NCBI GenBank assembly: GCA_030835025.1
Contig: JAUQWS010000023.1
Location: 150,458 to 214,457, forward strand
Reading direction: 5' to 3'
DNA: 64,000 bases
Origin: Ignavibacteria bacterium
GTDB taxonomy: Bacteria; Bacteroidota; Ignavibacteria; Tepidaquicellales; OLB5
The translations under genes were made by a program, and so were the position numbers. This document shows, piece by piece, positions 34,163-60,835 of the stretch (its first letter is position 1; every line of letters starts with the position of its first letter). Below the pieces are notes generated by a model. It did no database searches, had not been told where the DNA came from, and saw only the letters and a program-made list of their open reading frames with translations.

Positions 34163-34179
34163 TGTGACAATTTTGACAG
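34163..34179 (+). promoter_or_regulatory. candidate enhancer (UAS) for a sigma-54 activator, site 1
   Basis: TGTGACAATTTTGACAG is centred about 69 nt upstream of the GG of the sigma-54-like promoter. It matches the site at 40849-40865 at 15 of 17 positions. Confidence 0.5.
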
Positions 34180-34238
34180 GAAAATCTAAATCAAGTTGAA
34201 GAATTCTCAATTTTCAGCTTGCTTCAAAGGCATCTATT

Positions 34239-34253
34239 TGGCACAGAAATTGT
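34239..34253 (+). promoter_or_regulatory. sigma-54-type (-24/-12) promoter upstream of the lmo0937-family gene
   Basis: TGGCACagaaaTTGT has correct GG-to-TG spacing (consensus TGGCACG-N4-TTGC). The -12 element reads GT rather than GC. It lies 48 nt upstream of the ATG at 34301. Confidence 0.55.
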
Positions 34254-34300: not shown

Positions 34301-34453
34301 ATGCTTTGGACAATAGCGATTATCTTAATAGTCCTATGGCTGCTTGGACTGGTGAGTTCATATACAATGGGAGGATTCATACATATACTTCTGATACTAG
34401 CAGTTATTGCAGTCCTCGTGAGACTGATACAGGGCAGAAATCCGGTTAGCTAA
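34301..34453 (+). CDS. lmo0937-family small membrane protein (50 aa)
   Basis: MLWTIAIILIVLWLLGLVSSYTMGGFIHILLILAVIAVLVRLIQGRNPVS. The ATG is preceded by AAGGAGAG. The ORF-track version (34256) carries a spurious 15-aa extension. Confidence 0.8.
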   Translation: MLWTIAIILIVLWLLGLVSSYTMGGFIHILLILAVIAVLVRLIQGRNPVS

Positions 34454-38800: not shown

Positions 38801-40826
38801 CTAACTCTCCCTTCCATCCGGATTTGAGCGCGGCAGATATTATTTCTTTTCTCTTTTCATCTGTAATGCTGCCGGAATACAGTACCGGTATGTTCTGTCC
38901 AAGTATTTCACTTTCAAGATAGCCGTAAACAGATTCAAAGGAAGGGTTCACAAATATCGTTTTACTTTTAAGGTCAGTTATAAATACACATTCTTTGATT
39001 CCCCTTAAGGCATGTCCATACAGTTTCAGTCTGTTTTGGACTTTCTCCTTGATTGCCATTTCATCAAGAAGCCTGTTGAGAGTGTTTGCGAGCTCAACCG
39101 TCCTTTCGTTTACCCTGATTTCAAGTTCATCATAAGCCTTCTTCAGACTTTCTTCTGCTTCTTTCCTTTCCAGGAAATTTCCAACCTGTCTTCCGACTGA
39201 TTCAAGCACCTCAAGCAGATCTTCATTGGGCGAGTGGCTATCTTCATTGAAACACTCGATCACAGCAGTTACCACACCATTATCACTTATTGGAATGGCA
39301 AAAGCAGATCTTAATCCAAGATTTAGAAATTCCAGTTTCCTGGGAAAATTGTCGTCCTTTTCAATATCACTTACCCAATAAGATTTATTATCTTTCCAGA
39401 TCCTTCCCGGCAAACCCTCGCCTTTTTTGAAGCTGAAGGTTTTATCATAAACTCCGGCATAATCCCTTAAAACAGGATTCAAGTCACTCCACAGCGCTCT
39501 TTGTGCAAGCTTTTCTCCATCTGCAACCCACGCAATGCCGAATTTCCAGTTCACACCCGTGCAGATATCTTCGAGTACATTTTGAAGAGCTGACTCTGTA
39601 TTAACAGCCTCCGCAAGAGTTTTCGAGACGGAATACTGAATCTTCAGGTATCTTTCGTTGCGCTTTTTCAAATGAATATCCATACAAATACCAACAAACC
39701 CCTCAAATTCATTTGCTTTATACCTGGGTACACCCTTGTTTAGGAACCACTTATATTCACCTGCGCTTGACCTTAACCTGAATTCCACTTCAAAGCTAGT
39801 TCGGTCCTCAAAAGCAGCTGCATATACATCCAGGCAATTCTGAAGATCTTCATGGTGAACACCCTCTATCCATCCGTTTCCAAGCTCTTCATTCATGCTT
39901 CTGCCGGTGAAGTTTGTCCATCCTTTGCTGAGATAAGTGAATCCTTTATTCTTTCCCGAAGTCCAGATCAAAACCGGGGCAGAATCTGCCAATATCCTGA
40001 AACGCTCTTCACTTTCTCTGAGTGAATTTTCGATCTTAATTCTGTTCTCTATTTCTGTTTTAAAACTCTCATTGGTAAGTTTAAGCTCATTAGTGCGCTC
40101 TTCAACCCTGTCTTCAAGTTCATCATATGATTTCCTTAAGAGTGATTCTGCTTCATTCTTTTTTCTAATGAGCTTTCTGGAAATAAAGAGCGATAGTCCC
40201 AGGACAACAAATGCAAACAGACTTGTAAAAATGATGAATAACTGTGTGTCCATAAGGCTGTTTCTGGAAGCGGTTTGCCTTGCTTCAAGAAGTTTAAGCT
40301 CATCCTGTTTTATGCGCGATGTTACTTCGGCTGCTTTGTCTGTTAGATCCTGTGAGAGTATTGCAAGATTTGTCTGTTCCGGCAGAACTTTTTTCTCGGT
40401 TTCAAACAGCGAAAGTGAAGAATCGAGAAGTGATATGCATATCGAAGAAAGGGAATCCAGTTTGTTTACCTCTTGCCGGATCTCGTCTACTGCCGAACCG
40501 GATCGAAGCTTATCAAGCAATATACGAAGTGAGGTCTTCGAATTCCCGAATTCAACCAAATACCTTTTTTCGCCTTTTAATATGTACCCTCTTCTTTGAA
40601 GGTGCAGGTTGGATAAAAGAAGGTCAATTTGGTCTGCAGTTTTCAGAACTTCATTGGTATGGTCAACAGAACTAAGAGTACTTCTGTAAACTTCAATATT
40701 ATTATATGTTTTTATGCTGAGAACGACAAAACAAAGCAAAAAAATCAAAAATGCAGCCGGAATGAACTTCTCCAGCGGAAGTTTCTCAGTAAATCCTTGA
40801 GTTGACCTTTTCTTGTTTTCCTTCAA
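35853..40826 (-). CDS. giant sensor histidine kinase: CHASE3-like periplasmic domain, TM, about 6 PAS and 2 GAF domains, HisKA and HATPase_c
   Basis: 1657 aa. N-terminal TM followed by VDHTNEVL...[18 protein letters not shown] (CHASE3-like). Three tandem units of the KLGSWEWD...IWSDEMF type form PAS domains. The H-box is [15 protein letters not shown] and the G-boxes are DNGQGIP and GTGLGLGLA. The start is TTG. Confidence 0.85.
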
Positions 40827-40848: not shown

Positions 40849-40865
40849 TGTGACAGTTTTGTCAG
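40849..40865 (+). promoter_or_regulatory. candidate enhancer (UAS) for a sigma-54 activator, site 2
   Basis: TGTGACAGTTTTGTCAG contains the perfect inverted repeat TGACA-GTTT-TGTCA. It is centred about 61 nt upstream of the GG of the promoter at 40917. Confidence 0.5.
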
Positions 40866-40916
40866 ACCTTATATGCCTAAATGACTATAATAACAACAAA
40901 AATATCAAAAAAGATT

Positions 40917-40931
40917 TGGCACGATTCTTGT
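40917..40931 (+). promoter_or_regulatory. sigma-54-type (-24/-12) promoter divergent from the kinase gene
   Basis: TGGCACGattcTTGT matches YTGGCACG-N4-TTG with correct spacing. The -12 element is GT rather than GC, as at 34239. Confidence 0.55.
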
Positions 40932-40992
40932 AACATTAAGTCAGTGAACAAAATAGTGATTTTGAAATTAACTTTAAATGAATGGAGGAAAA

Positions 40993-41163
40993 ATGCTTGA
41001 CCACAAAATCAAAAGAGAGGACATAGGTTATCTGAGGCTTCTAATCGATCTGGCACGGCTTGAATATGAAAAAGTAACTTCCAAGAAGAACGATTCTTCA
41101 GATGAACCATCATTAAGTGAAAACGTTAACAGGAGACTGGCTTTGATTAATTTTTATCTGTAA
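40993..41163 (+). CDS. hypothetical small protein (56 aa), first ORF after the sigma-54-type promoter
   Basis: MLDHKIKREDIGYLRLLIDLARLEYEK... The ATG at 40993 is preceded by GGAGGA. The ORF-track start is 40978. Confidence 0.4.
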   Translation: MLDHKIKREDIGYLRLLIDLARLEYEKVTSKKNDSSDEPSLSENVNRRLALINFYL

Positions 41164-42468: not shown

Positions 42469-42840
42469 ATGGACGAAAGAACATCATCTAAAGGATTTTA
42501 TATCGGCCTGTTGGCGGGTGGAGCAATTGGAGGTTTGACAGTACTTTTGACTGCACCCAAAAGCGGCAAAGAATTAAGGAAAGATCTGAGGAAAAGAACC
42601 AGGAAAATTGCCGGGAACACAGAAGAGTACATTGATTCTACAAGAAAAAGAGCTACTGAGATAATTTCCGACGGGAAAGACAAGGCAGAAGAACTCGTAA
42701 ACGACGCTAAGAGCATGACCAGCTCAATTATTAACCGCGGCAAAGATTATTTTAGTGAAGAAGTCTCGAAAATGAAGGATGCCTTCAAAGCTGGTGCAGA
42801 TACATTCAATGAAGAAAGTAAGTCAAAGAAAACTCGGTGA
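42469..42840 (+). CDS. YtxH-domain protein (general-stress type, N-terminal Gly-rich TM)
   Basis: 123 aa. It has KGFYIGLLAGGAIGGLTVLLTAPKSGKELRKDL, the YtxH hallmark. Confidence 0.8.
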   Translation: MDERTSSKGFYIGLLAGGAIGGLTVLLTAPKSGKELRKDLRKRTRKIAGNTEEYIDSTRKRATEIISDGKDKAEELVNDAKSMTSSIINRGKDYFSEEVSKMKDAFKAGADTFNEESKSKKTR

Positions 42841-42944
42841 CCCGTTACTTACAGAATGGTCCTTGTTGAAAAAAAGTGATTGTTGGTGTCAAACTGCATA
42901 ATCAGTAAAATAAGGAATTTTCCAGCAAATTATCAGAAAAACAA

Positions 42945-43097
42945 ATGTCTAGGATAATCGATATTTCTAAACACAAAAGTGAGACTTATGAAGATGCGTC
43001 TTTTGATGAGGACATGGAATACGATGAAGAAAATGCGTATAAATTGCTCGGCATTGCAGTTTTTCTGATCTGGATGTTAACGTTTTTTTTGAATTAA
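42945..43097 (+). CDS. possible tail-anchored micro-protein (50 aa)
   Basis: My translation reads MSRIIDISKHKSETYEDASFDEDMEYDEENAYKLLGIAVFLIWMLTFFLN. It is below the ORF-track size cut-off. There is no clear RBS, so this is a weak call. Confidence 0.3.
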   Translation: MSRIIDISKHKSETYEDASFDEDMEYDEENAYKLLGIAVFLIWMLTFFLN

Positions 43098-43123
43098 TCT
43101 TAATTGTACACGGGGCACAATCA

Positions 43124-43270
43124 ATGCTTTGGACGATTTTCATCGCATTATTAATAATCTGGTTAGTTGGGATATTTACGCCGTTCAGCCAGGGGAGCTA
43201 TTTTATCATACTGTTCATTACTGCAGCAGCAATTGTGCTTGTCAGGATCATTGCAGGCAAAAATTCATAA
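43124..43270 (+). CDS. lmo0937-family small membrane protein (48 aa)
   Basis: My translation reads MLWTIFIALLIIWLVGIFTPFSQGSYFIILFITAAAIVLVRIIAGKNS. It is a paralog of 34301-34453 and is absent from the ORF track (<60 aa). Confidence 0.7.
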   Translation: MLWTIFIALLIIWLVGIFTPFSQGSYFIILFITAAAIVLVRIIAGKNS

Positions 43271-43302
43271 ATTGAATTTCTTTTAGAAGTAAGGAGTGAA
43301 TA

Positions 43303-43794
43303 ATGAATAAGGAAAGAATTTTCAAAGAAGAGGTTTACGTGCATTATGATTATTTCTTAAGAGTAGCAAAGAATATGACTCAGAATTTATTTGATGCTGA
43401 GGATCTGCTTCAGGATTCGTTTGCAAGGGCTTACAGGTTTCTGGATTCGTTCGAGCCCGGAACCAATTCAAAAGCCTGGGTGTACCGTATTATGAAGAAC
43501 CTGTTCATAAATTTCAACAGAAAGAAACAGGCTCATCCGAACTACAGCCTGGACAGCATGCAAAATGAGCCATTCATAAGGGAAGACCAAAACACATTAA
43601 GATATTTTGAAGTTATGAAACTTATCGAGAAGATAAAAGATGAATACAGGCAAGTGATCATTCTATATCATCTTGAAGAGCATTCGCTTGCTGAAATATC
43701 GAAAGCACTCAACTGGCCTTTAGGTACAGTCAAAAGCAGGCTACACAGGGCCAGAAAGGAATTCAGAAAGGTCATTTCTGAAACGAATATTTAG
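43303..43794 (+). CDS. ECF-type RNA polymerase sigma factor (sigma-70 regions 2 and 4), copy A
   Basis: 163 aa. Region 2 is DAEDLLQDSFARAYRF...KAWVYRIMKNLFIN. Region 4 is LAEISKALNWPLGTVKSRLHRARKEF. The RBS is AAGGAG. Confidence 0.85.
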   Translation: MNKERIFKEEVYVHYDYFLRVAKNMTQNLFDAEDLLQDSFARAYRFLDSFEPGTNSKAWVYRIMKNLFINFNRKKQAHPNYSLDSMQNEPFIREDQNTLRYFEVMKLIEKIKDEYRQVIILYHLEEHSLAEISKALNWPLGTVKSRLHRARKEFRKVISETNI

Positions 43795-43828
43795 AGACTT
43801 TTAATAAATAGTTGCAGAAGGAGGCGGT

Positions 43829-44149
43829 ATGTTCAACACACTGTATAACCAGCTTTTTATTGAAAGTGAAAACAACGAACTTTTCATATATATTCACCTG
43901 GATAAGCTTTGTGAAAAAAAAGCATCTCTGATACTTGACAAGTACGTTGAGAATTTCAAGAAATACGAATTTGAAAAGATAAATGTTTCATTTTGGAACG
44001 TGAACATACCGGGTGAGCATTTGAGCTCATTCAGGAAAAAGACAAATGCGGCAATCAACAGAATTCTAAAAGGTTTTAAAGTCATCAATTCATATTATGA
44101 TTTCAAGATAAACCTGAAAGTAATAGCCGAGCCGCAATTGATAAATTAA
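43829..44149 (+). CDS. hypothetical soluble protein downstream of ECF sigma A
   Basis: 106 aa with no TM and no zinc-binding anti-sigma motif. It sits where an anti-sigma gene would normally be. Confidence 0.5.
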   Translation: MFNTLYNQLFIESENNELFIYIHLDKLCEKKASLILDKYVENFKKYEFEKINVSFWNVNIPGEHLSSFRKKTNAAINRILKGFKVINSYYDFKINLKVIAEPQLIN

Positions 44150-51916: not shown

Positions 51917-53257
51917 TTATTTCTTTCCTTTATTATTTTCGTTGCCATTGTTTTTGCCGCCTTTGTTTCTGTCGCCATCTTTGTTGCCTTTATTCCTATC
52001 ACCATCCTTGTTGCCTTTTACATTGTCATTGTTCTTATTGCCGTTATCATTGTCTTTGTATTTTTTCCCTTTATCATTGTCTTCATACTTCTTACCGTTG
52101 TCATTGTTATTGTACTTCTTTCCGTTATCATTGCCATTGCCGTTATTTCCTTTTTTGTAATCCTTTTCATCTTTGCGTGAATCCTTATTCTCATTTTTGA
52201 ATTCTTTATCACCGGAATTATTAGATTTCCAGTCATTATATTTCTTATACTTTTTCGGCTCGTTTACAGTAAACTTGGCATGATCTTTGCTCTTGTATCT
52301 TTTGAACCCGGGTTTATACACAAAATACTCACCATTTGAATACCTTACGTCTTTATAATTGCCAACGTGTTTTATCTTTACCGTTTCAATATCCCTGCCA
52401 TAGATGTATTGGATTATGTTAGGGTCCGGTCCCCTGTTAATAACTGCATTGTTAACCAAGACGATACCTGGAATACCGGTAAATCCGCTGACAAGTATCC
52501 TGCTGCCATCAGAATAATAAACATTGTTGTATTTATAAACTTCCGGCTCAAGGAAATACTTTCTTTCAACAACAACATAATTATTGTTGTCAATAACCGG
52601 AGCGTTCATAATTCCGTTCACCAGGTAGACTGATGGCGGAAGCGGTGCCCATGATACGTAATCATCATTCTGCTTCCAGTCGACCCATGCTGGTGCCCAT
52701 ACTCTGCCCGGAACCCAAAGCCATCCTGCCGAAGGTGTATTAACCCACCTGCCATGATGCGACACTGTTTCTTCTACAGGTGTAGCGCCTTTAAAATACC
52801 AGCCTGCATCTGAATTGATCCACTGTCCGTTGGAATAAGGCACATAAACAGGTGTTGTGCCTGTTGTATTTACAACTGCAAGCTCAGGGGCAGGCTTCCA
52901 GACGTATATCATGTTAACACTGGTGTTTGCTGAGCTTAATGCGTCTTTACTGCCTGCAGAGCTTCCTGTAGCAGCAATTCTAGGCTCGAGCCCTATTTCT
53001 TCAGGTTGAACCTGCACCCATTCACCGTGCGGCGCAAGCTGATCATAAAACTCTTTATAATCTACTGCACTAAGGTCTTCATCGGTTTCAGCGAAGTCAT
53101 TATCTTCTACAGATGTTGCTTCAAGGTTTTTATCCAGCATTTGTTTCTGTTCTTCAGTCAGATTCCCGTCTGCATTTTTTGTGCAGGATGAGAACATGAA
53201 TATTGATACAGTAAATGCCAGCAATCCCATGGTCCTTAATATTCTTAAAACTTCCAT
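51917..53257 (-). CDS. lipoprotein with a Trp-rich central region and an N/K/D/G low-complexity tail
   Basis: 446 aa with lipobox FMFSSC. The centre reads GRWVNTPSAGWLWVPGRVWAPAWVDWKQNDDYVSWAP. The last ~95 aa are NDNGKKY / GNKDGDRNK repeats. Confidence 0.65.
   Translation of the reverse strand: MEVLRILRTMGLLAFTVSIFMFSSCTKNADGNLTEEQKQMLDKNLEATSVEDNDFAETDEDLSAVDYKEFYDQLAPHGEWVQVQPEEIGLEPRIAATGSSAGSKDALSSANTSVNMIYVWKPAPELAVVNTTGTTPVYVPYSNGQWINSDAGWYFKGATPVEETVSHHGRWVNTPSAGWLWVPGRVWAPAWVDWKQNDDYVSWAPLPPSVYLVNGIMNAPVIDNNNYVVVERKYFLEPEVYKYNNVYYSDGSRILVSGFTGIPGIVLVNNAVINRGPDPNIIQYIYGRDIETVKIKHVGNYKDVRYSNGEYFVYKPGFKRYKSKDHAKFTVNEPKKYKKYNDWKSNNSGDKEFKNENKDSRKDEKDYKKGNNGNGNDNGKKYNNNDNGKKYEDNDKGKKYKDNDNGNKNNDNVKGNKDGDRNKGNKDGDRNKGGKNNGNENNKGKK
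51920..52200 (-). repeat. coding low-complexity / imperfect tandem repeats (27-nt GNKDGDRNK unit x2 and NDNGKKY-type units)
   Basis: Visible in the DNA as ...cgccatctttgttgcctttattcctatcaccatccttgttgcc... It spawns several spurious overlapping ORFs in the track. Confidence 0.8.
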
Positions 53258-53293: not shown

Positions 53294-53791
53294 TCAGAAC
53301 TTAAAATCTACACCAAGTTCTAAAGTGTTAAAATTGAAATTACCAAGCCCGAACCTGGCAACTCCGGCAACTGCGGGAGAGAAGAAATATCTCATTCCGC
53401 CCTGTCCCCATGCCCACAATCCGCTATTTTTGAGTGAATTGCCGTTTGGCGAGGATGAGAAGAAGCCGAGAACCACACCAAGAAACGGAACAAACTTTCC
53501 GCTTGCAATTTGGTTGAAATTATAATTAGCCTGTCCGCCCAAAAAGATATTTGAGAATCTTTCAAGCCTGTCATCCGGATAGCTTGAATACCTGAGAAGT
53601 GCGCCCAAGCCTATGGACCCGATTCCTGCCTGAGTGACCTGGTTTTCGTAATTGAATCCGAATGTGGGTGTGTTGTTGCGTGCCCAGAATCCGAGTGTAC
53701 CACCCATTAAATTATCACGCTCTTTAAGCTGTGAGAACGATGCTGTTGCAAGCAGCATCAAAAATAGTACTGAGTAAATTGCTGTTTTCAT
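53294..53791 (-). CDS. small outer-membrane beta-barrel protein
   Basis: 165 aa with signal peptide MKTAIYSVLFLMLLATASFSQ. Gly/aromatic beta pattern, ending in ...ELGVDFKF. Confidence 0.65.
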   Translation of the reverse strand: MKTAIYSVLFLMLLATASFSQLKERDNLMGGTLGFWARNNTPTFGFNYENQVTQAGIGSIGLGALLRYSSYPDDRLERFSNIFLGGQANYNFNQIASGKFVPFLGVVLGFFSSSPNGNSLKNSGLWAWGQGGMRYFFSPAVAGVARFGLGNFNFNTLELGVDFKF

Positions 53792-53957: not shown

Positions 53958-53999
53958 CAATTGAGCAAAGGGATGATAAAAGGACTACACCTCACGGAT
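53958..53999 (-). promoter_or_regulatory. conserved upstream element, copy A
   Basis: The reverse strand reads ATCCgtgaggTGTAGTCCTTTTATCATCCCTTTGCTCAATTG, 167 nt upstream of the 53791 start. Confidence 0.55.
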
Positions 54000-54092: not shown

Positions 54093-54875
54093 CTATTTTT
54101 TCTTAATTACTCTCTTTGGCTGACCGAAGTAAAAGCTCATGCCTGCGTAGAACTGCAGATAAGCCATTTTCCTCGATTTCTGGGTAGTGGTTTCTTTGTC
54201 ATTTAAACCATAAGTAGTGCTTGTGCTGGTTGTAGAATCCTTGCCAAACAGGTTTGCAAAAGCATACCTTCCGCCGATTACTACGCCGACATTTTTGCTA
54301 AGCTTAACATCTACACCTGCAGCAAAAGTGGCACCAAATCTTATAGCTGATTCCATATTGGCTTCATAGCTAGGTACAGAACCGCCGCTTTGTTCAAATG
54401 TGGTTTTTCCACCGATGATATTGGTTGTAAATTGAACATTCACGAACGGATTTGCGGGTCTCTTCGGTGCAAAATCGTACTCAGCACCAACACCGATAGT
54501 AAACAAGTTCATATCTGTTCTCCATGTGCCAGAACCGATACCAAATATATTGTTTGAATCAAGATTGGAAACGCCGATATCTCCGCTACTAAGCATTGTA
54601 TATGTTAGCGCCAACATGATCCCGAAAGTACTTTTTTTATCAACATAGTATTTCACGTCTGCCCCAAAGTTGAATCCGTTATTTACAAAATACGGCGTGG
54701 GGTTTTTGCCGGATTCCAGATCGGCAGGAAAAGTCCCTTTAAGATCAGGAAGTGTAGTTGTATATCCGCCAATAACGTGAATATTCCATTTTGGTACTGC
54801 GTAAGTCTGTGACTTTATGCTGTTTATAGCAAAAATCAATGCTAAAACAACTAATAATGTATTAAATTTTTTCAA
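54093..54875 (-). CDS. outer-membrane beta-barrel (porin-like) protein
   Basis: 260 aa with signal peptide MKKFNTLLVVLALIFAINSIKSQ (TTG start). Alternating beta strands, with FYAGMSFYF near the C-terminus. Confidence 0.65.
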   Translation of the reverse strand: MKKFNTLLVVLALIFAINSIKSQTYAVPKWNIHVIGGYTTTLPDLKGTFPADLESGKNPTPYFVNNGFNFGADVKYYVDKKSTFGIMLALTYTMLSSGDIGVSNLDSNNIFGIGSGTWRTDMNLFTIGVGAEYDFAPKRPANPFVNVQFTTNIIGGKTTFEQSGGSVPSYEANMESAIRFGATFAAGVDVKLSKNVGVVIGGRYAFANLFGKDSTTSTSTTYGLNDKETTTQKSRKMAYLQFYAGMSFYFGQPKRVIKKK

Positions 54876-54948: not shown

Positions 54949-54989
54949 CAATCAATCATTAGTATGAAATTGGAACTACATCTTTGGAT
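54949..54989 (-). promoter_or_regulatory. conserved upstream element, copy B
   Basis: The reverse strand reads ATCCaaagaTGTAGTTCCAATTTCATACTAATGATTGATTG, 74 nt upstream of the 54875 start. Confidence 0.55.
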
Positions 54990-55067: not shown

Positions 55068-55736
55068 CTACTCTACCTGCAGGATCTGTTTTCTGAAGTC
55101 ATTTTCCCCATTTGTATTGATCCTGACTCGAAATGACATTCTGAAACCGTATACGTTTAGCGGATCTCTATCTGTTGCTTCTCTGGGCTGAATTATGCCA
55201 TAAACACTGTTCGTAGTTATGCCGGCTTCTCTTTTGCCTTTAAGCCAGAAGCAATAAACCGGATAAGATGCCAGAGGGGAATTGAAGTAACCCCAGCTCT
55301 CAGTTCCGCTTTGAGTAAAGTCATTAGGCGTAAACACGGTATAATTTGGAACCTTTGATAATGTATCAAAAGTATTTACAGACATATCTTCGCTAACCCT
55401 GAAGAATCTTGTCTCATAACCGGGAGGTAATAAGCTGTTAAGCAGCTCACCGTTTTGCAGATAAAAATCAACCCCGCTATTGTTCCTGTCGTTTAAACTG
55501 ACATCACGAAGCCTGGCAGTATCAACAGTGTTCAAACCGTTAAGCAGGTTGATGCCCGTTCGCGAAATAAACGCTGCTGAATCCTCATCAACACCGATGC
55601 TGTCGTAAGATTCCACATTGGGATTATCAATATAAGTAGTTGTCGGTTCTGTTGAGGAATCGTCACATCCGGCAGCCAAAAAGACTAAAGTGATGCTTAC
55701 TGCAAAAAATATTAAAAATTTCGAAATTGATTTCAT
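55068..55736 (-). CDS. hypothetical lipoprotein
   Basis: 222 aa with lipobox FLAAGC. I recognise no family. Confidence 0.6.
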   Translation of the reverse strand: MKSISKFLIFFAVSITLVFLAAGCDDSSTEPTTTYIDNPNVESYDSIGVDEDSAAFISRTGINLLNGLNTVDTARLRDVSLNDRNNSGVDFYLQNGELLNSLLPPGYETRFFRVSEDMSVNTFDTLSKVPNYTVFTPNDFTQSGTESWGYFNSPLASYPVYCFWLKGKREAGITTNSVYGIIQPREATDRDPLNVYGFRMSFRVRINTNGENDFRKQILQVE

Positions 55737-55780
55737 TTTGTTTGTTTGATTATGAATTAGTTTATGGATCTTGTTAAAAA

Positions 55781-56179
55781 TTACTTACCGGGAATTGGCA
55801 GCTCCGCTATATTCTCCTCTTTAAATGGAAATGCACTACTTTTAATGGCATCGGCCTTCATTTCCAATGGAAACGGGCTTAAAACTTTCGGATCTTCAGA
55901 GGGCAATAATTCATCTGAAAGAGATGTTAATTCGGAAAATTGCAGATTATCTGTATACTCAAAGTTGAGCTCAGATCCAGCCCGGATCAATTCTATGCTC
56001 TGATCACCATTAACATCAGTATACATCTGAAACCGGCCACTTTCGGCGGAACGACCGTTTTCACCTGTACTTTCTTCTTCATTCTCATTTGTTTCGTCCA
56101 TTTCTCTGTAGAATACAACCATAGTAATAAGAACAAGTACTACCAAAAAGAAGGAAAAATATTCTACTATTAAGGCCAT
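55781..56179 (-). CDS. hypothetical N-terminally anchored, acidic protein
   Basis: 132 aa with an N-terminal TM (FSFFLVVLVLITMVVF) followed by an acidic region. Confidence 0.45.
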   Translation of the reverse strand: MALIVEYFSFFLVVLVLITMVVFYREMDETNENEEESTGENGRSAESGRFQMYTDVNGDQSIELIRAGSELNFEYTDNLQFSELTSLSDELLPSEDPKVLSPFPLEMKADAIKSSAFPFKEENIAELPIPGK

Positions 56180-56412
56180 CTGGTTTGCCCGGGCAACTTA
56201 AAATTTTTTTCTGATTCTATCTTGCGCAAACTGTTATACTCCTTAGATTTTTCAAATTCTCTTTCAATATCTGGGTATGTCCTGAACTGTGCACCCTGAT
56301 TGACAGCAATTCTTTCCTGAATTAATCCTGAGTTATTTTTGACTAAGATTAAGATCATTAAAAAAAGAATTTTAAGTAGAAGTTCATCATATTGTTTTTC
56401 GTCCTGTAACAA
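56170..56412 (-). CDS. hypothetical small membrane protein (weak call)
   Basis: 80-aa ORF with a TTG start and one TM (LLLKILFLMILILV). It overlaps the 3' end of the lmo0937-family gene by 26 nt, so the true start is uncertain. Confidence 0.3.
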   Translation of the reverse strand: MLQDEKQYDELLLKILFLMILILVKNNSGLIQERIAVNQGAQFRTYPDIEREFEKSKEYNSLRKIESEKNFKLPGQTRWP

Positions 56413-56536
56413 GATTATATATGAGTATTATCACTGCAACAACTAATAGTATATGAATGAAACCACCTAAAGAATAAGAACTTACAAGTCCCACCAGCCA
56501 AAGTACTAAAAGTATTACAAATATTGTCCACAGCAT
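56387..56536 (-). CDS. lmo0937-family small membrane protein (49 aa)
   Basis: My translation reads MLWTIFVILLVLWLVGLVSSYSLGGFIHILLVVAVIILIYNLVTGRKTI. The ATG is preceded by AAGGAGA. It is absent from the ORF track. Confidence 0.75.
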   Translation of the reverse strand: MLWTIFVILLVLWLVGLVSSYSLGGFIHILLVVAVIILIYNLVTGRKTI

Positions 56537-56576
56537 GATTTATCTCCTTATTGGATTAAATTATTGAAAAAACTCT

Positions 56577-56726
56577 TTAAACGGTTCTTTTACCGGGTAA
56601 GAACCTGAAAATAAGTACTACTACTGCAAAGATCAGCAAAAGATGGACCAACCCGCCCATTGTGTATGAAGTAAATACTCCGAGCAACCAAAGAGCAATA
56701 AGGATCACAAAAATTGTCGCAAGCAT
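56577..56726 (-). CDS. lmo0937-family small membrane protein (49 aa)
   Basis: My translation reads MLATIFVILIALWLLGVFTSYTMGGLVHLLLIFAVVVLIFRFLPGKRTV. It is in tandem with 56387-56536 and absent from the ORF track. Confidence 0.7.
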   Translation of the reverse strand: MLATIFVILIALWLLGVFTSYTMGGLVHLLLIFAVVVLIFRFLPGKRTV

Positions 56727-56985
56727 GATTTGTTCTTTCTAAAATATTAAGTTAAAACATTTGCAGTTAAATTAGAATTGCAGAGATAAATTTGTATGTA
56801 TCTGGGCATCTTCATATGTGAAACAAAATCTTACCTCTGCAATTACTAATGTGACGTCTAATGCTGACGTTGAAGCAGCATTATGGAGGAGAAAAACCAA
56901 AACTTTTGCTCTATAAATCTCGATTATTCATACGATAACACTTTTTAGATCTTAGTTTGAAGTGCCCATTCCTTTATTGCCGGGT

Positions 56986-57522
56986 CTAATTAATCCCGTA
57001 ATTCATTTGCTTTCCTTCTGCATATTCTGAAATCAGATTTTTCAGAGTTCGACGTGCCCTGAATAGTCTGCTTTTGACAGTACCAACCGGGCAGTTCAGG
57101 AACTTGGAAATATCTTCAATACTGTAATCTTCAAGATGGAAAAGTATGATCACCATCCGGTATTCATCTTTGATAGAGTTTATAGCCACTAAGAATTCAT
57201 CGCTCATAAGAGTATCCTTATCTGAAGAAGTGAACCAGGATAGTGTATCCGGCTTTTCGTAATTTGAAAGCAGCTGCGGCGCTTTTTGTTTCTTTGCCGC
57301 ATAATTTATAAAAAGGTTCTTCAGTATCCGGTACATCCAGGCTTTGGGGTTTGTATTTTTTTCATACGTATGGTAGAATCGGTACGCCCTGATGTACGCT
57401 TCCTGCACCAAATCTTTTGCATCATCTTCATCCCTGGTAAGATTAGCTGCAACTTTCACGAAGTATTTATAATGCGGGATCATTTCTCTTTCAAAATCCC
57501 CTGTGCGGTTATAATCTTCCAT
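56986..57522 (-). CDS. ECF-type RNA polymerase sigma factor, copy B (paralog of 43303-43794)
   Basis: 178 aa. Region 2 is DAKDLVQEAYIRAYRF...KAWMYRILKNLFINY. Region 4 is IEDISKFLNCPVGTVKSRLFRARRTL. Confidence 0.85.
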   Translation of the reverse strand: MEDYNRTGDFEREMIPHYKYFVKVAANLTRDEDDAKDLVQEAYIRAYRFYHTYEKNTNPKAWMYRILKNLFINYAAKKQKAPQLLSNYEKPDTLSWFTSSDKDTLMSDEFLVAINSIKDEYRMVIILFHLEDYSIEDISKFLNCPVGTVKSRLFRARRTLKNLISEYAEGKQMNYGIN

Positions 57523-57565
57523 ATTTCAGTTCAGTATTTTTAGTAATTTTTTGTTTCTGTTCATT

Positions 57566-57949
57566 TTAAGTGATCTTGTTTTGAACATTCTCCGTATTTT
57601 CTGACTCCGGACTTCTTTTGTCCAAGTCTGATCTTCTTTCGCTGTATGCCCTGAAACCGGATTTAAGAGCGGCTTTTACATTATCTGCTTTGCGGGTTAT
57701 CTTATCCATACCCGTATTCAAAAATTCATTGGCGCTATCCAGAGTACTTTCAGCAGCATCTTTAGCTCCATTCCATGATTCAGAAGTCAGTTTCTTACCT
57801 TCTTCGATCAGTTCACCTGTTTTCCTTCCAATATCTTTTCTGAGATTCTTTCCTGCCTTAGGTGCATATAATAAGGCCAATGCACCTCCAATAACTCCGC
57901 CGAGCAGAAAACTTAAGAATATTCCTTTTTTACTTTTCTCGCGTATCAT
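57566..57949 (-). CDS. YtxH-domain protein, copy B
   Basis: 127 aa. It has KGIFLSFLLGGVIGGALALLYAPKAGKNLRKDI. Confidence 0.8.
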   Translation of the reverse strand: MIREKSKKGIFLSFLLGGVIGGALALLYAPKAGKNLRKDIGRKTGELIEEGKKLTSESWNGAKDAAESTLDSANEFLNTGMDKITRKADNVKAALKSGFRAYSERRSDLDKRSPESENTENVQNKIT

Positions 57950-58004
57950 ATCATTATTATCCTTAATATTTTGATGTTAATAAAAATTGTTAATTTCCTG
58001 CTTC

Positions 58005-59723
58005 TTATTTAACCAGAATCATCTTCTTGTTAGAAACAAATGATCCGGATTCCATTCTATAAAAATATGCGCCGCTTGGATATGCCTCTGCATTCCAGGT
58101 TACTTCATAATTTCCTGCACTCTGGTACTGGTTAATCAAAACACTTACATTCTGTCCAAGTGCGTCATATATGCCAATCTTTACATTACCTGCAGAAGGA
58201 AGCTGGTAATTAATTACAGTTACTGGGTTAAACGGATTAGGATAGTTCTGGGAAAGTGTGAATTCAAATGGACTATTAGTTCCGTTACTGCCGATTGCTA
58301 TTACGCCAGTTGTATTGAACCCTACCTCGTAAATATCAAAATTATTACCGCTGCGATAATCCTGCCATACAACTATCGCTCCTAGATTACCGTTACTGAC
58401 GATTGATGGCCTAATCTGGTCATTGGCAACGGAACATATAACGTAACCCGTAGCCGCCCAGTTTATTGCCGCATTTGATGCGATTCTCTGCGCATAAACA
58501 TCAGAATTCCCTGAATTACGATGGTCCTCCCATGTAATATATGCTCCGCTGTTTCCATCACTGACAAGCTGGGAACTTATCTGGTCACCTGAAGCTGTGC
58601 AAATGATAACACCAGTTGCTGTCCACTGAACTGCTCCCGTTGAGTTTACACGCTGTGCATATATATCGGCAGTTGTGCCTGTTCTATAATCTGTCCATGA
58701 AAGGATTGCTCCGCCCATTCCATCACTAACTATCTTTGGATCTGTTTGTGCATATGCAACATTATTATTCATCACAACTCCATCAACAGCCCAAACTATT
58801 GCGCCGCTGGGACCCTGTCTTTGGGCATAAATGTTAAAATCTGTTGAGCTTCTATAATCACTCCACGCAATGATCACTCCGCCTGCTCCGTCACTTGAGA
58901 TATCAGGTTTTAGCTGGTCTGTTCCCATGGTACAAGTTGCTACTCCGTTTGTTGTCCATTGTACGGCTCCTGCTCCACCTACTCTTTGAGTGTAAATATC
59001 ATAGCTGCCTGAGCGGTTATCGTACCAGGTTATAAATGCTCCTCCGCTGCCATCGCTTACAAGTCTGGGGCCTCTTTGTGATGCAGCCTGGTTGCATATA
59101 TTTACCCCGTTTGCGGTCCACAACATTGCTCCTGAAGGATTTATACGCTGTGCGTAAATATCCGGTAACCCGCTGTTGCTGCGGTAATCCTGCCACGTAA
59201 GAATTGCACCGCCAAGCCCGTCACTGATCATAGTTATTGTGTCCTGTTCAAAGACAACAACACATACTGGAACGCCATTCAGTGTCCACTGCACATTGCC
59301 GCTTGAATTAACCCGCTGGGCAAAGATATCTGCCGTAGCGCTTCCTCGGTATGACTGCCATGAGATTATTGCACCACCACTGCCATCACTGACAATCATG
59401 GGAGTGTAATTGCTATCCTGTGTGCAGATGGGTATTCCATCTGTACTCCATACAGCGTTTCCGTCTGAGTTCATTCTTTGTGCATATATCTCGAATTTAC
59501 CGCTTCGCTTATCCTGCCATGAAATAATTACACCGCCGCTGCCGTCTGTAGCAGCCACAGAATTAATCTGGTTATTAACTGCAGTACTGACAGGATTTCC
59601 TGTCGACTGTGAATTAGTTGCAACCGGCATTATTAAGACAAATGCAAATACCAATGCAAATGAACGAAACAGGCGCCATAATAAAGCTGCTGGGTCTGTA
59701 AAAATTGATTTCATAATTCTCAC
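58005..59723 (-). CDS. T9SS-sorted secreted protein built from eight ~53-aa tandem repeats (probable beta-propeller)
   Basis: 572 aa with a signal peptide. It has 8 units of SDGSGGAIISWQDYRSG..DIYAQRVNSSGAVQWT.NGV.IC. The C-terminal domain reads NYPNPFNPVTVINYQL...GAYFYRM...KKMILVK. Confidence 0.75.
   Translation of the reverse strand: MRIMKSIFTDPAALLWRLFRSFALVFAFVLIMPVATNSQSTGNPVSTAVNNQINSVAATDGSGGVIISWQDKRSGKFEIYAQRMNSDGNAVWSTDGIPICTQDSNYTPMIVSDGSGGAIISWQSYRGSATADIFAQRVNSSGNVQWTLNGVPVCVVVFEQDTITMISDGLGGAILTWQDYRSNSGLPDIYAQRINPSGAMLWTANGVNICNQAASQRGPRLVSDGSGGAFITWYDNRSGSYDIYTQRVGGAGAVQWTTNGVATCTMGTDQLKPDISSDGAGGVIIAWSDYRSSTDFNIYAQRQGPSGAIVWAVDGVVMNNNVAYAQTDPKIVSDGMGGAILSWTDYRTGTTADIYAQRVNSTGAVQWTATGVIICTASGDQISSQLVSDGNSGAYITWEDHRNSGNSDVYAQRIASNAAINWAATGYVICSVANDQIRPSIVSNGNLGAIVVWQDYRSGNNFDIYEVGFNTTGVIAIGSNGTNSPFEFTLSQNYPNPFNPVTVINYQLPSAGNVKIGIYDALGQNVSVLINQYQSAGNYEVTWNAEAYPSGAYFYRMESGSFVSNKKMILVK
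58314..59555 (-). repeat. eight in-frame ~159-nt coding repeats
   Basis: The repeat boundaries are read from the protein. Each unit starts with S(D/N)G.(G/S)GA and contains W.D.R and (I/V)Y(A/T)QR. Confidence 0.75.
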
Positions 59724-59782
59724 CTTTTAGTATAAATTTTTTGTTTTTATTAACTCAAACTACGTATTGATCCGTTATTTTT

Positions 59783-59824
59783 CAATTGTACAAAAGGATG
59801 AAAAAGGAACTACATCTTTTGGAT
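59783..59824 (-). promoter_or_regulatory. conserved upstream element, copy C (heads the unit that contains ECF sigma B)
   Basis: The reverse strand reads ATCCaaaagaTGTAGTTCCTTTTTCATCCTTTTGTACAATTG, 60 nt upstream of the 59723 start. Confidence 0.55.
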
Positions 59825-59924: not shown

Positions 59925-60734
59925 TTAATCTACATTAATTACAACATTGGTTGAAGGCTGGCCAAAGAACGTACCATCTTTAACTAACTGGCACTGCAGG
60001 TTATATACACCTGACTTTTTCGGTGCGGTAACCTTAAAGCTGAAATTGACTTCAGAACCTGAGTAAACATCATCCGATAATTCAACATTAGCTACTTCCC
60101 ATGCATTATATGTATTATCAGCACCTTTTGTTGATACTTTGAGTTTATATTCTCCCGGCTTCCATGTTGTAGATCCGGTGTTTCTCATTGTGACATTGAC
60201 ATCATAAGTTAAGCCGGTCTCCATTTCAGAGGTTACTTTTTGCGTTACGAAAAACGCATTGTTTTCAATAAAATTCGGGACTTCTATAACAGGCTCCGTT
60301 CCTGAGACTCTGACCGGTACATTCATTGTAGGTTCACCAAAGAAAGCATTGCCGCTTGCCATCTGCCACTGTATGTTGTAGCTTCCGTCAACCGGTGCTA
60401 CGATCGTAAAGTTAAATACAACTTCGCTGCCAGGACTAACAGTTGAGTTCACATCTACACTGCCGATTGACCATGTTTTGTAAACTAATTCCGATGGATT
60501 TATCAGCTTGAGGCTGTAGGTACCCTGTTTCCAAACACTGCGTCCCGTATTCTTCATTGTAACCGATACTCCGTAACTTTGCCCGGGGAGCATGAATCCG
60601 GGTGTTGATTGTGATAAGTATGCTGCATTATCATAGTAGTCAGTTATCCCGACACCTTTTGATTGTGCGGTAAGACTGCCTACTATCAAAACACTTAATG
60701 TAAGTGCGATTGCTATCGACTTAATTTTTTTCAT
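59925..60734 (-). CDS. secreted protein with two NBR1-type Ig-like (FW) domains
   Basis: 269 aa with a signal peptide. Two units have the pattern V(T/N)M(K/R)NTG...W(K).G.Y.LK........W....V.....V.(P/S)GSEV.F.F...AP...G.YN.Q.Q......FG.P. Confidence 0.5.
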   Translation of the reverse strand: MKKIKSIAIALTLSVLIVGSLTAQSKGVGITDYYDNAAYLSQSTPGFMLPGQSYGVSVTMKNTGRSVWKQGTYSLKLINPSELVYKTWSIGSVDVNSTVSPGSEVVFNFTIVAPVDGSYNIQWQMASGNAFFGEPTMNVPVRVSGTEPVIEVPNFIENNAFFVTQKVTSEMETGLTYDVNVTMRNTGSTTWKPGEYKLKVSTKGADNTYNAWEVANVELSDDVYSGSEVNFSFKVTAPKKSGVYNLQCQLVKDGTFFGQPSTNVVINVD

Positions 60735-60793: not shown

Positions 60794-60835
60794 CAATCGC
60801 ACTACAGGATGAAATAAGAACTACACCCAACGGCT
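60794..60835 (-). promoter_or_regulatory. conserved upstream element, copy D
   Basis: The reverse strand reads AGCCGttgggTGTAGTTCTTATTTCATCCTGTAGTGCGATTG, 60 nt upstream of the 60734 start. Extra TGTAGT-like words flank it. Confidence 0.55.

Follow-up and report, generated by a model that had tools for sequence, protein, structure and literature searches.

ECF sigma factors can be placed under transcriptional control and work without an anti-sigma factor, as with HrpL, which has a sigma-54 promoter and enhancer-binding proteins, and Streptomyces SigE with CseBC. In the alphaproteobacteria, EcfG, NepR and PhyR form the general stress system. Non-canonical ECFs have been reviewed (PMC8999054). 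In Firmicutes, ytxG, ytxH and ytxJ are members of the SigB regulon of B. subtilis (PMC7824861), and in Listeria a sigB mutant shows lmo0937 lowered by about 3 log2 units (PMC7690807).

Here we compare these systems with module B, a locus in a 64-kb stretch of Ignavibacteria DNA (the window, which is the whole stretch that was analysed). Our preferred reading, which we put slightly below an even chance, is that module B is a conserved envelope/stress island that has lost its anti-sigma factor, in which sigma would be set by synthesis, YtxH and lmo0937 would be effectors and an RNA element would condition lmo0937.

Gene content of module B

Module B reads along the minus strand from a T9SS beta-propeller protein through YtxH, the ECF sigma, a 259-nt spacer, two lmo0937/DUF5670 peptides and two small ORFs to a lipoprotein:

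59756..59816, minus: promoter architecture, 60 nt, preceding the T9SS-YtxH-sigma unit
58005..59723, minus: T9SS repeat protein, 572 aa, secreted, beta-propeller-like, with a T9SS C-terminal sorting domain
57566..57949, minus: YtxH-family protein, 127 aa, an N-terminal hydrophobic helix followed by amphipathic helices
56986..57522, minus: ECF sigma factor, 178 aa, sigma-2 and sigma-4 domains only
56762..56896, minus: conserved RNA element, 135 nt, inside the 259-nt spacer between sigma and lmo0937 peptide 1
56577..56726, minus: lmo0937/DUF5670 peptide 1, 49 aa, two hydrophobic segments (Pfam and NCBIfam)
56387..56536, minus: lmo0937/DUF5670 peptide 2, 49 aa (Pfam and NCBIfam)
56170..56412, minus: 80-aa ORF without a family match
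55781..56179, minus: 132-aa ORF with an N-terminal hydrophobic helix, without a family match
55068..55736, minus: lipoprotein, 222 aa, without a family match

An ORF check recovered every module B ORF named in the original prediction on this strand at unchanged coordinates, and the families assigned to them were correct, with profile scores above the curated Pfam and NCBIfam cut-offs. These are Por_Secre_tail in the T9SS protein (39.2 bits against a cut-off of 27, residues 494-569), PF12732 in YtxH (59.6 against 37.5), Sigma70_r2 (56 against 24) and Sigma70_r4_2 (54.9 against 25.7) in sigma and, for the tandem peptides, DUF5670 (53.9 and 59 against 23.5) and lmo0937_fam_TM (56.2 and 61.7 against 30). 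The lipoprotein has the lipobox LAAGC, with orthologues in related loci of the module B type (B-type) and paralogues of 30-34% identity in two loci of the module A type (A-type; L103 and L105), module A being the second such module in the window.

The 259-nt spacer had been described as the only long gap. However, the same prediction lists no gene for the 650 nt from 56386 down to 55737, a stretch that is occupied by the unlisted 80-aa and 132-aa ORFs. Both are kept in the closest relative (L090), where the counterpart of the 80-aa ORF is a 75-aa called gene and a 121-aa called gene is ~70% identical to the first ~80 residues of the 132-aa ORF. The inter-gene gaps of module B are 55, 43, 259 and 40 nt. 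From gaps and motifs we infer its operon structure, co-transcription and start sites, in which sigma would share a transcript with the T9SS protein and YtxH.

Conservation of the sigma-YtxH-lmo0937 trio

The pairing of sigma with YtxH and lmo0937 had been noted as conserved between the two modules, and the neighbourhoods of related loci extend this beyond this genome: synteny is kept, with shuffled order, in more than 12 of them. YtxH is upstream of sigma in every examined related locus that bears a sigma of this clade, directly so in all sigma-bearing B-type loci (gaps of 31-61 nt) and with one or two small genes intervening in all A-type loci. The lmo0937 gene adjoins sigma in most clade loci, on either side. 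These comparisons support the trio as a conserved unit rather than an accident of this genome.

It is very improbable, in our estimation, that the adjacency is just gene order inherited within a narrow clade and functionally meaningless. All loci with the arrangement do come from close relatives (the sigma clade comprises sequences 63-85% identical, more distant relatives being at most 44% identical), and the flanking cytochrome, FG-GAP and DUF6600 genes are syntenic in relatives too. However, two old paralogous modules both contain the trio, lmo0937 has switched sides (in L092, L093 and L100 versus the window, L081 and L094) while remaining adjacent to sigma, and there are three different insertion points of sigma within one and the same string of YtxH, RNA element and lmo0937.

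The missing anti-sigma factor

As had been noted, no recognisable anti-sigma factor stands beside sigma, and we found none anywhere in the 64 kb. The window ORFs gave zero Pfam or NCBIfam matches to anti-sigma families and showed no homology to 63 partner proteins of related sigmas, and the sole HxxxCxxC match in the window falls in an antisense ORF inside another gene. For both window sigmas the best-scoring named family in NCBIfam is TIGR02947 (SigH-like), which the module B sigma matches with 116.7 bits, below the cut-off of 251.55.

More distant sigma relatives have a close co-oriented downstream ORF in 63 of 79 loci; CxxC or single-pass features are present in 41 of these 63 ORFs, and some of the partners match zf-HC2. 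Neither YtxH nor DUF5670 was found within 6 kb of sigma in any of the 79 loci, and in the nearest outgroup (P0024) the downstream partner is 79 aa long and YtxH is absent. Because distant relatives usually have a zinc-finger or single-pass partner downstream and the clade does not, gene neighbourhoods indicate that the linked canonical anti-sigma factor was lost in this clade. The module B sigma would descend from a SigH/SigR-like branch whose other members carry such an anti-sigma factor directly downstream.

Module A and its 106-aa orphan

Module A, for which YtxH, lmo0937 and sigma had been reported, is present on the plus strand, and a histidine kinase and an NtrC-type activator lie near it:

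34301-34453, plus: third lmo0937 copy, standing alone next to the NtrC-type activator
34523-35920, minus: NtrC-type sigma-54 activator, between the two sigma-54 promoters
35853-40826, minus: histidine kinase, between the two sigma-54 promoters
40849..40931, plus: sigma-54-type promoter and upstream site, preceding a small ORF, a receiver protein and OMP genes of module A
42469..44149, plus: module A core (YtxH, 50-aa ORF, lmo0937, ECF sigma, 106-aa orphan)
42469-42840, plus: YtxH, 34.5% identical to that of module B
43124-43270, plus: lmo0937
43303-43794, plus: ECF sigma, 50% identical to that of module B
43829-44149, plus: 106-aa orphan ORF directly after sigma, the anti-sigma position

The module A promoter consists of TGGCACGATTCTTGT at 40917-40931 with the upstream site TGTGACAGTTTTGTCAG at 40849-40865, and is conserved in L087, L103 and L105. 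This upstream site recurs at 34163-34179, and a sigma-54-type promoter stands at 34239-34253, both on the plus strand and preceding the third lmo0937 copy. A hairpin and a 181-nt gap lie between the sigma-54-driven genes and the module A YtxH and sigma in the window. YtxH had been named as the only neighbour of sigma common to both modules; this does not hold in relatives, in which both module types share an OMP beta-barrel, a lipoprotein, a 165-184-aa protein and DUF6600. A DUF948 gene is present in two A-type loci (L087 and L105), in L087 in place of lmo0937 beside sigma.

The conserved 106-aa ORF, which the original prediction did not consider, lies 12-35 nt 3' of sigma in five of five A-type loci. 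It is clade-restricted, with 9 representatives among 1.84 billion proteins. An inhibitor unlinked to module B, either an orphan anti-sigma factor elsewhere in the genome or the 106-aa protein acting on both sigmas, could restrain the module B sigma, which we judge unlikely. The constant position of the ORF, the match between its nine representatives and the narrow range of the sigma clade, and the 50% identity of the two window sigmas are consistent with such an inhibitor. However, the protein matches no Pfam or NCBIfam family and no solved structure, its model, an unreliable one (pLDDT 49), points to an alpha/beta fold rather than a helical anti-sigma domain, one weak relative (P0218) has a lipoprotein-type signal sequence, and none of the ORFs of the 64 kb is similar to the partners of related sigmas.

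Promoter architecture of module B

The module B promoter region has a 21-nt upstream block, GATGTAGTTCCTTTTTCATCC, followed by ATTG, 19 nt and GTAGTTTG. The block recurs before three neighbouring units:

60807..60827, minus: copy 2, preceding a 269-aa Ig-like/CARDB-like protein (59925-60734)
54962..54982, minus: copy 3, preceding an OMP beta-barrel gene (54093-54875)
53971..53991, minus: copy 4, preceding a 165-aa gene (53294-53791) and a DUF6600 gene (51917-53257)

With four copies in the window, the motif has 37 distinct sites overall, nearly all in related loci, where chance would give none. Its core spacing is that of TTG-N19-TAnnTTTG sites elsewhere in the window (Bacteroidetes-like promoters). 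Promoters of this kind and the T9SS cargo point to an uncultured lineage that probably belongs to the FCB group. With the T9SS gene deleted, as in L099, YtxH, the RNA element and sigma come straight after the motif. A-type islands have sigma-54 promoters instead. The promoter would comprise the ~20-nt upstream block beside a TTG-N19-TAnnTTTG-type core, and the three neighbouring envelope-protein units would be under the same architecture. Control of the module B sigma is probably transcriptional, and its activity would be set mainly by the amount of sigma made, as in the HrpL and SigE-CseBC types of ECF sigma, which are known to lack anti-sigmas. We found no activator for the upstream block.

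The 60-nt motif could instead be the recognition site of the module B or module A ECF sigma, which would make the island an autoregulated envelope regulon, possibly below the module A sigma-54 cascade; we regard this as a real but minor possibility. It would explain why the motif precedes sigma's own operon and only nearby envelope genes, the usual ECF regulon pattern, and why A-type islands use a different promoter class, and a cascade from sigma-54 to an ECF sigma has a precedent in HrpL. However, ECF elements of the AAC/CGT type are absent from the motif. The only block pair at a known promoter spacing, ATTG-N19-GTAGnTT, fits the primary-sigma type found elsewhere in the window, and the strongly conserved ~20-nt block would fall in the spacer. 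In addition, the motif is intact in three loci without a sigma (L096, L097 and L098), and the regions upstream of related sigma genes showed no dyad in common. Were the motif the ECF sigma's own promoter, the operon would be autoregulated and hence in need of a brake.

Role of YtxH and lmo0937

The evidence leans against the suggestion that YtxH or the micro-proteins control sigma, as they persist without sigma and are stress-regulon outputs. In such a scheme YtxH, alone or with lmo0937, would be a new membrane-anchored anti-sigma factor replacing the lost zinc-finger partner, and its amphipathic helical domain would keep sigma membrane-bound until envelope stress frees it; we consider both the replacement and this mode of action quite unlikely. 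The invariably upstream YtxH in sigma-bearing B-type and A-type loci, the presence of the trio in both modules even though the copies are diverged subfamilies, and the lack of any other candidate in module B by Pfam, NCBIfam and partner-protein comparison are what such a role would predict. However, L096 keeps YtxH, the RNA element and lmo0937 without a sigma in the locus, there is no YtxH near the 79 more distant sigma relatives, and the family is broad and a known stress-regulon output (PMC7824861). Moreover, an upstream gene position is unusual for anti-sigmas, and the canonical position in module A is taken by a separate conserved ORF.

We infer that YtxH and lmo0937 are co-expressed membrane stress effectors, not inhibitors, because both families belong to Firmicutes sigma-B stress regulons, because they persist at the locus in relatives without a sigma there, and because the third lmo0937 copy stands behind its own sigma-54 promoter. 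In addition to L096, there are three loci (L097, L098 and L101) in which the RNA element and lmo0937 remain but YtxH and sigma are both missing; the loci without sigma are metagenome contigs, so that a sigma may lie elsewhere in those genomes. A controlling role is also disfavoured because in module A the anti-sigma position already holds a separate candidate, and because the specialised promoters of both modules could replace post-translational control. As a counterpoint, an upstream YtxH in both paralogous modules and all sigma-bearing loci is also expected of a dedicated partner.

An RNA element in the intergenic spacer

The 259-nt spacer had been called structured. Taken whole, it only slightly beats shuffled sequences (z = -1.68), and what stands is the conserved two-hairpin element of 135 nt. 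Its components are a CCUCC tail, a hairpin of 8 bp, GACGUC in invariant form, and a long hairpin that varies at its tip and carries a U-rich tail. Across 13 distinct aligned copies, 96.8% of cells in its 25 pairs are paired and 6 pairs have compensatory changes; none of 500 shuffles reached its score. Rfam gave no match, and neither an alternative antiterminator pairing nor a leader peptide nor a promoter of its own was found for the element. About half the copies, that of the window among them, have a weak U-tract following the second hairpin, which makes terminator function uncertain. The lmo0937 genes would stand behind a hairpin or terminator-like element that travels with them and that probably limits or conditions read-through or translation.

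Comparison with known systems

The SigR-RsrA and SigH-RshA pairs (TIGR02947), with their zinc-binding anti-sigma factors, represent the named family closest in score to both window sigmas, and homologues of 32-44% identity usually have a small CxxC or single-pass partner directly downstream, several matching zf-HC2. However, the score is far below the cut-off, and a zinc-finger or other partner is absent after the module B sigma and its orthologues. EcfG-NepR-PhyR resembles the window in combining an ECF sigma with small membrane stress proteins, and a single-domain receiver and a kinase lie near module A, but a NepR-like or PhyR-like gene is absent; PhyR_sigma2 matches are weak and lie within sigma itself.

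The RNA element shares with intrinsic terminators, attenuators and 3'UTR-derived small RNAs a stable hairpin with a U-rich tail, an upstream hairpin, a single-stranded C/U-rich 5' tail and an intercistronic position. It differs from them in its strongly conserved primary sequence (CCUCCAUAAUG, GACGUC), and in having no Rfam family and none of the regulatory features sought above.

With the Firmicute sigma-B regulon (ytxGHJ of B. subtilis, lmo0937 of L. monocytogenes) the window and its relatives share the YtxH and lmo0937 families and, in A-type L087 and L105, DUF948, and these families are there associated with an alternative sigma factor (PMC7690807, PMC7824861). The Firmicute sigma, however, belongs to group 3, is controlled by partner switching and is encoded away from these genes, whereas the window has an embedded ECF sigma.

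HrpL and SigE-CseBC differ from the window in that module B has no sigma-54 promoter, the sigma-54-driven genes of the window are set apart from YtxH and the module A sigma by the hairpin and gap, and its outputs are envelope proteins, not a secretion system. The likeness is one of control logic: module B, too, has no linked anti-sigma factor and has a dedicated promoter architecture, and module A has a histidine kinase and an NtrC-type activator as neighbours, along with sigma-54 promoters that have upstream sites in common.

Gene content of the two sigma modules

We combined an ORF listing with profile searches to define the genes of module B, the minus-strand island at 55068-59824, and of its plus-strand paralogue, module A (core 42469-44149).

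Genes of the two modules and the additional lmo0937 copy
58005-59723, minus: 572-aa repeat protein, T9SS cargo (ORF listing, profile searches)
57566-57949, minus: YtxH, 127 aa (ORF listing, profile searches)
56986-57522, minus: ECF sigma factor of module B (sigma-B), 178 aa (ORF listing, profile searches)
between the sigma-B gene and the first 49-aa peptide, minus: 259-nt gap (ORF listing)
56577-56726, minus: lmo0937/DUF5670 peptide 1, 49 aa (profile searches)
56387-56536, minus: lmo0937/DUF5670 peptide 2, 49 aa (profile searches)
56170-56412, minus: 80-aa ORF (ORF listing)
55781-56179, minus: 132-aa ORF with a hydrophobic helix at its N-terminus (ORF listing)
55068-55736, minus: lipoprotein, 222 aa (ORF listing)
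42469-42840, plus: module A YtxH, followed by a 50-aa ORF (homology, profile search)
43124-43270, plus: module A lmo0937
43303-43794, plus: ECF sigma factor of module A (sigma-A), 50% identical to sigma-B
43829-44149, plus: module A 106-aa ORF
34301-34453, plus: fourth lmo0937 copy of the window, outside both modules

The family names given in the original prediction (Por_Secre_tail, YtxH, Sigma70_r2 with Sigma70_r4_2, and DUF5670/lmo0937) all score above curated cut-offs. Sigma-B matches Sigma70_r2 at residues 17-80 (56 bits), Sigma70_r4_2 at residues 108-160 (54.9 bits) and TIGR02937 sigma70-ECF (76.7 bits, cut-off 42.9), and thus has the composition of an ECF (group 4) factor, with sigma-2 and sigma-4 only and without region 3 or region 1. 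The YtxH proteins of modules B and A match PF12732 with 59.6 and 67.6 bits (cut-off 37.5) and consist of helical repeats after a hydrophobic N-terminal helix. For the module B lmo0937 peptides the scores are 56.2 and 61.7 bits (NF033488 / PF18919 DUF5670; cut-off 30), and both have the family's length of about 45-50 aa and two hydrophobic segments. The 572-aa protein is identified as T9SS cargo by PF18962 Por_Secre_tail (residues 494-569; 39.2 against 27) and by TIGR04183 (39.7 against 23). Profile searches returned no match for the 80-aa, 132-aa and 222-aa proteins of module B.

Module B had been described as a run of genes separated by short gaps. As listed, it contained a 650-nt hole, which is filled by the previously unlisted 80-aa and 132-aa ORFs. 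Both have called counterparts in L090, which is the closest related locus and the one place where they are conserved, and they are therefore probably real.

The OMP beta-barrel, 165-184-aa and DUF6600 genes are common to both types of island, and two A-type islands, that is, loci resembling module A, encode paralogues of the module B lipoprotein with 30-34% identity (L103 2836-3534 and L105 2643-3269). These correspondences indicate that the duplicated unit was a whole island of roughly eight genes and not the sigma gene alone.

A neighbourhood conserved within one sigma clade

We compared the DNA around eight sigma orthologues, around three homologues of the 106-aa protein, and in seven more loci recovered with the DNA pattern of the spacer element. 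The sigma orthologues form a tight group of 63-85% identity, beyond which the next relatives fall to 43%. YtxH lies upstream in every locus examined that has a sigma factor of this clade, and lmo0937/DUF5670 adjoins the sigma gene in most, the exception being the A-type locus L087, where DUF948 takes its place. In both L087 and L105, another A-type locus, YtxH is paired with DUF948, which we take to be the YtxG family.

Gene orders in the window and in related loci (L handles)
YtxH, sigma, RNA element, lmo0937: window, L081, L085, L090, L094
YtxH, RNA element, lmo0937, sigma: L092, L093, L100
YtxH, RNA element, sigma, lmo0937: L099
YtxH, DUF948 and/or small ORFs (lmo0937 among them in most), sigma, 106-aa ORF: A-type loci

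HMMs trained on the YtxH and lmo0937 proteins of these loci found no match within 6 kb of 79 distant sigma relatives, and the nearest outgroup sigma (P0024) lacks YtxH and is followed by a 79-aa ORF. On this distribution the association of YtxH and lmo0937 with the sigma factor is real and clade-specific, and it arose together with the loss of the usual anti-sigma partner. The sigma/YtxH/lmo0937 adjacency noted in the original prediction is thus kept in related loci beyond this genome, and that observation was largely right.

The number of lmo0937 copies among relatives varies from 1 to 3. A decayed copy (47 aa, with a divergent C-terminus) lies between the sigma gene and the RNA element at L085 3285-3428 (and L084 6578-6721).

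Loss of the zinc-finger partner

The comparison set for downstream partners comprised 79 loci from genomes of other species, with sigma relatives 32-44% identical, from which the co-oriented, directly downstream ORF was extracted. Such an ORF lies close by in 63 of the 79. Partner features, defined as CxxC in the first 100 residues or a single transmembrane helix at residue 70-130 in a protein of 200-320 aa, are present in 41 of these 63, including 21 with a strict HxxxCxxC, and several of the downstream partners match zf-HC2.

None of the 63 partner proteins, used as phmmer queries, has a homologue among the window ORFs. Models for the anti-sigma domain, RskA, zf-HC2 and RseA_N gave no match for YtxH, lmo0937, the 132-aa ORF, the lipoprotein or the 106-aa ORF, and no anti-sigma domain was matched by the 80-aa ORF. 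The sole HxxxCxxC match in the window falls within an antisense ORF inside another gene. With neither a model match nor a partner homologue, the earlier statement that no anti-sigma factor is recognisable therefore holds for module B. It extends to the orthologous loci, where no ZAS-like partner follows the sigma gene and, as in the 64-kb window, no genuine ZAS-like ORF was found. Sigma-B and sigma-A score 116.7 and 106.2 bits against TIGR02947 (SigH/SigR-type), below its cut-off of 251.55. SigH/SigR-type pairs carry an HxxxCxxC anti-sigma factor directly downstream, whereas the module B sigma gene has lmo0937 peptides there instead. The term YtxH was not found in the main text of the ECF classification paper.

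Module A has a conserved ORF of its own in the canonical anti-sigma position. The 106-aa ORF lies directly downstream of the A-type sigma gene in all five loci, and its product is restricted to this clade (one search gave 12 clusters, and another, of 1.84 billion proteins, gave 9 representatives). Searches with it gave no family match, no PDB sequence match and no informative remote homologue, and its structure model (pLDDT 49) is too poor for a fold search.

YtxH and lmo0937 as candidate sigma regulators

To our knowledge, no function is known for the YtxH and lmo0937/DUF5670 families, both of them widespread membrane proteins induced by stress, and a literature search found no papers on DUF5670. 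The original prediction raised the possibility that YtxH or the micro-proteins control sigma activity, so that a sigma clade without its zinc-finger anti-sigma factor would be held in check by membrane-anchored YtxH, possibly with lmo0937 peptides. If true, this would be the first molecular role, as sigma regulators, for two very widespread general-stress families. The adjacency would fit such a brake, but several related loci retain the proposed inhibitors without the sigma factor. L096, known from a contig and not a genome, contains the T9SS gene, YtxH, RNA element, lmo0937 and lipoprotein but no sigma gene, and L097, L098 and L101, likewise contigs and not genomes, contain the T9SS gene, RNA element and lmo0937 but neither YtxH nor sigma. 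A dedicated inhibitor is not expected to outlive its target. In addition, module A has the 106-aa ORF in the partner position, and the extra lmo0937 copy of the window stands alone behind a sigma-54-type promoter. Both families are also outputs of the sigma-B stress regulon in Firmicutes (PMC7690807, PMC7824861): lmo0937 is about 3 log2 units lower in a sigB mutant (PMC7690807), and the SigB regulon list includes ytxG, ytxH and ytxJ (PMC7824861). The proposal that YtxH or lmo0937 restrains the sigma factor is thus unsupported, and we consider it improbable. Even so, two old paralogous modules of a single lineage both tie these families to an ECF sigma, and this offers a defined genetic setting for tests of their function.

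L097 and L098 (contigs Ga0187866_1016198 and Ga0187878_1004300) also encode a 75-aa membrane protein and a NarL/LuxR-type response regulator, and the module B promoter motif is still in place in both.

Predicted sigma-54 wiring around module A

Sigma-54-type promoters and the regulatory genes between them
34163-34253, plus: sigma-54-type promoter TGGCAC-N5-TTGT with site TGTGACAnTTTTGnCAG 68-76 nt upstream
34523-35920, minus: NtrC-type sigma-54 activator
35853-40826, minus: large histidine kinase
40849-40931, plus: second promoter and upstream site of the same form

The first promoter, TGGCACAGAAATTGT at 34239, precedes the lone lmo0937 copy and has the site TGTGACAATTTTGACAG 76 nt upstream. 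Elsewhere in the window, perfect matches to both motifs occur only before module A, at 40849 (site) and 40917 (promoter). One predicted sigma-54 promoter would drive the lone lmo0937 and the other module A. Given the matching promoters and upstream sites, with the kinase/activator pair between them, the lone lmo0937 is a predicted direct output of this two-component system. A-type islands have sigma-54 promoters before receiver/OMP genes and before DUF6600 units, and lack the 60-nt motif of module B.

The first gene after the module A sigma-54 promoter, just before a single-domain receiver protein, is a small ORF of 43-61 aa in which the motif GYLRLLIDL is conserved (window 40978-41163, plus; L087 3797-3928; L103 1282-1458; L105 1224-1385).

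A conserved RNA element in the module B spacer

The whole 259-nt spacer folds only marginally better than shuffled sequences (z = -1.68); the signal sits in a conserved 135-nt part, a two-hairpin RNA element at 56762-56896 (minus). The element opens with a C/U-rich tail (UCCUCC) and an 8-bp hairpin (AUAAUGYUG ... CARCAUU); an invariant GACGUC then leads into a 17-bp hairpin, the tip of which ranges from 3 nt to about 55 nt among copies, and the element closes with a U-rich tail. We identified 13 distinct copies, among them L081 6522-6650, L085 3494-3594, L092 5590-5727, L096 5492-5586 and L099 3361-3458. In their alignment 96.8% of cells pair and six pairs have changes on both sides; none of 500 shuffles reached the observed covariation, and slid controls drop to 32-50% pairing. 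Its G-U pairs imply an RNA in the orientation of the genes. In a covariance-model search the window had a single copy, and A-type loci had none. Searches of the window, the module and the spacer alone against Rfam 15 gave nothing at gathering scores (best chance-level score 19.9 bits, against gathering scores of 50-100).

The element always starts at or soon after the stop codon of a YtxH, sigma or T9SS gene, and the gene that follows is lmo0937 for 12 of the 13 copies and sigma for the remaining one. The U-tract after the conserved 17-pair stem has 5-7 U in L081, L085, L092 and L094 and only 1-3 U in the window, L090, L096 and L101; about half of the copies have a weak U-tract. At most, this can be called a putative intercistronic, hairpin/terminator-like element that travels with lmo0937, and it probably limits or conditions lmo0937 expression. 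Alternatively, the element may give rise to a processed small RNA that uses CCUCC as its seed. RNAalifold on 7 sequences suggested that CCUCC could pair with the ribosome-binding site of lmo0937, but this pairing spans only 4 bp and is missing for the first copy of the window, and we rejected it.

Other candidate explanations were rejected. Truncated folds and duplex searches revealed no conserved antiterminator of the kind expected for riboswitch-like switching. Against a leader peptide or coding ORF across the element, loop and linker lengths in the aligned sequences differ by numbers that are not multiples of three, and no ribosome-binding site is present. A promoter of its own is not apparent, as the upstream sequences are unrelated gene ends. 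As a candidate without an Rfam family, the hairpin/GACGUC/hairpin element could represent a new regulatory RNA class controlling lmo0937-family genes.

Promoter architecture of module B and proposed control of the sigma factor

The T9SS gene is preceded, at a distance of about 75-95 nt, by a 60-nt architecture composed of GATGTAGTTCCTTTTTCATCC, 9 nt, ATTG, 19 nt and GTAGTTTG. Four copies in the window, common to envelope-gene units around the sigma gene, have an upstream block GaTGTAGTTCCttTTTCATCC followed by ATTG, 19 nt and GTAGnTT.

Copies of the promoter motif in the window
59796-59816, minus: before the T9SS-YtxH-sigma unit
60807-60827, minus: before a 269-aa Ig-like protein
54962-54982, minus: before the OMP beta-barrel gene
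53971-53991, minus: before the 165-aa/DUF6600 unit

All four are on the gene strand, and none is expected by chance. A motif scan yielded 37 distinct sites, nearly all in related loci and always before the same kinds of envelope genes. In L099, where the T9SS gene is deleted, the motif lies directly before YtxH, the RNA element and sigma. The spacing of ATTG-N19-GTAGnTT is that of TTG-N19-TAnnTTTG sites before other operons of the window, a form that we take to be the Bacteroidetes-type primary promoter. Because of this spacing we read the 20-nt block as a candidate activator site next to a primary-type promoter core. With this motif in module B islands and sigma-54 promoters in A-type islands, the paralogous islands thus seem wired to two different promoter classes.

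As an ECF promoter, the 60-nt motif fits no spacing on either strand. An RNA hairpin within it (GATG...CATC) was also rejected, as there is no compensation where CATCC changes to CAACC and no RNA-level covariation. A search for a common dyad motif upstream of 43 related sigma genes gave nothing above a shuffled control.

Transcriptional control of sigma abundance is a known alternative to anti-sigma factors, exemplified by HrpL and SigE-CseBC. Non-canonical ECF control has been reviewed (PMC8999054). We infer that the module sigma factor may likewise be controlled through its abundance, by transcription. The best-supported reading, which we hold with somewhat less than even confidence, is a transcriptionally controlled ECF sigma factor in its own envelope/stress island, from a branch that lost its zinc-finger partner. 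If this ordinary reading holds, the locus is a tidy example of such a factor inside its own stress island. The locus also illustrates the loss of a zinc-finger anti-sigma factor by an ECF branch in which such a partner is the norm, and the rewiring that can follow: sigma-54 promoters precede one island, and a dedicated 60-nt architecture precedes the other. Further work would best start from the conserved RNA, the regulon defined by the promoter motif and the link of the paralogous island to sigma-54. Under HrpL-like logic, the sigma gene would be transcribed from a sigma-54 or activator-dependent promoter in a genome without an anti-sigma factor; of these features, the window contains predicted promoter motifs and an adjacent activator.
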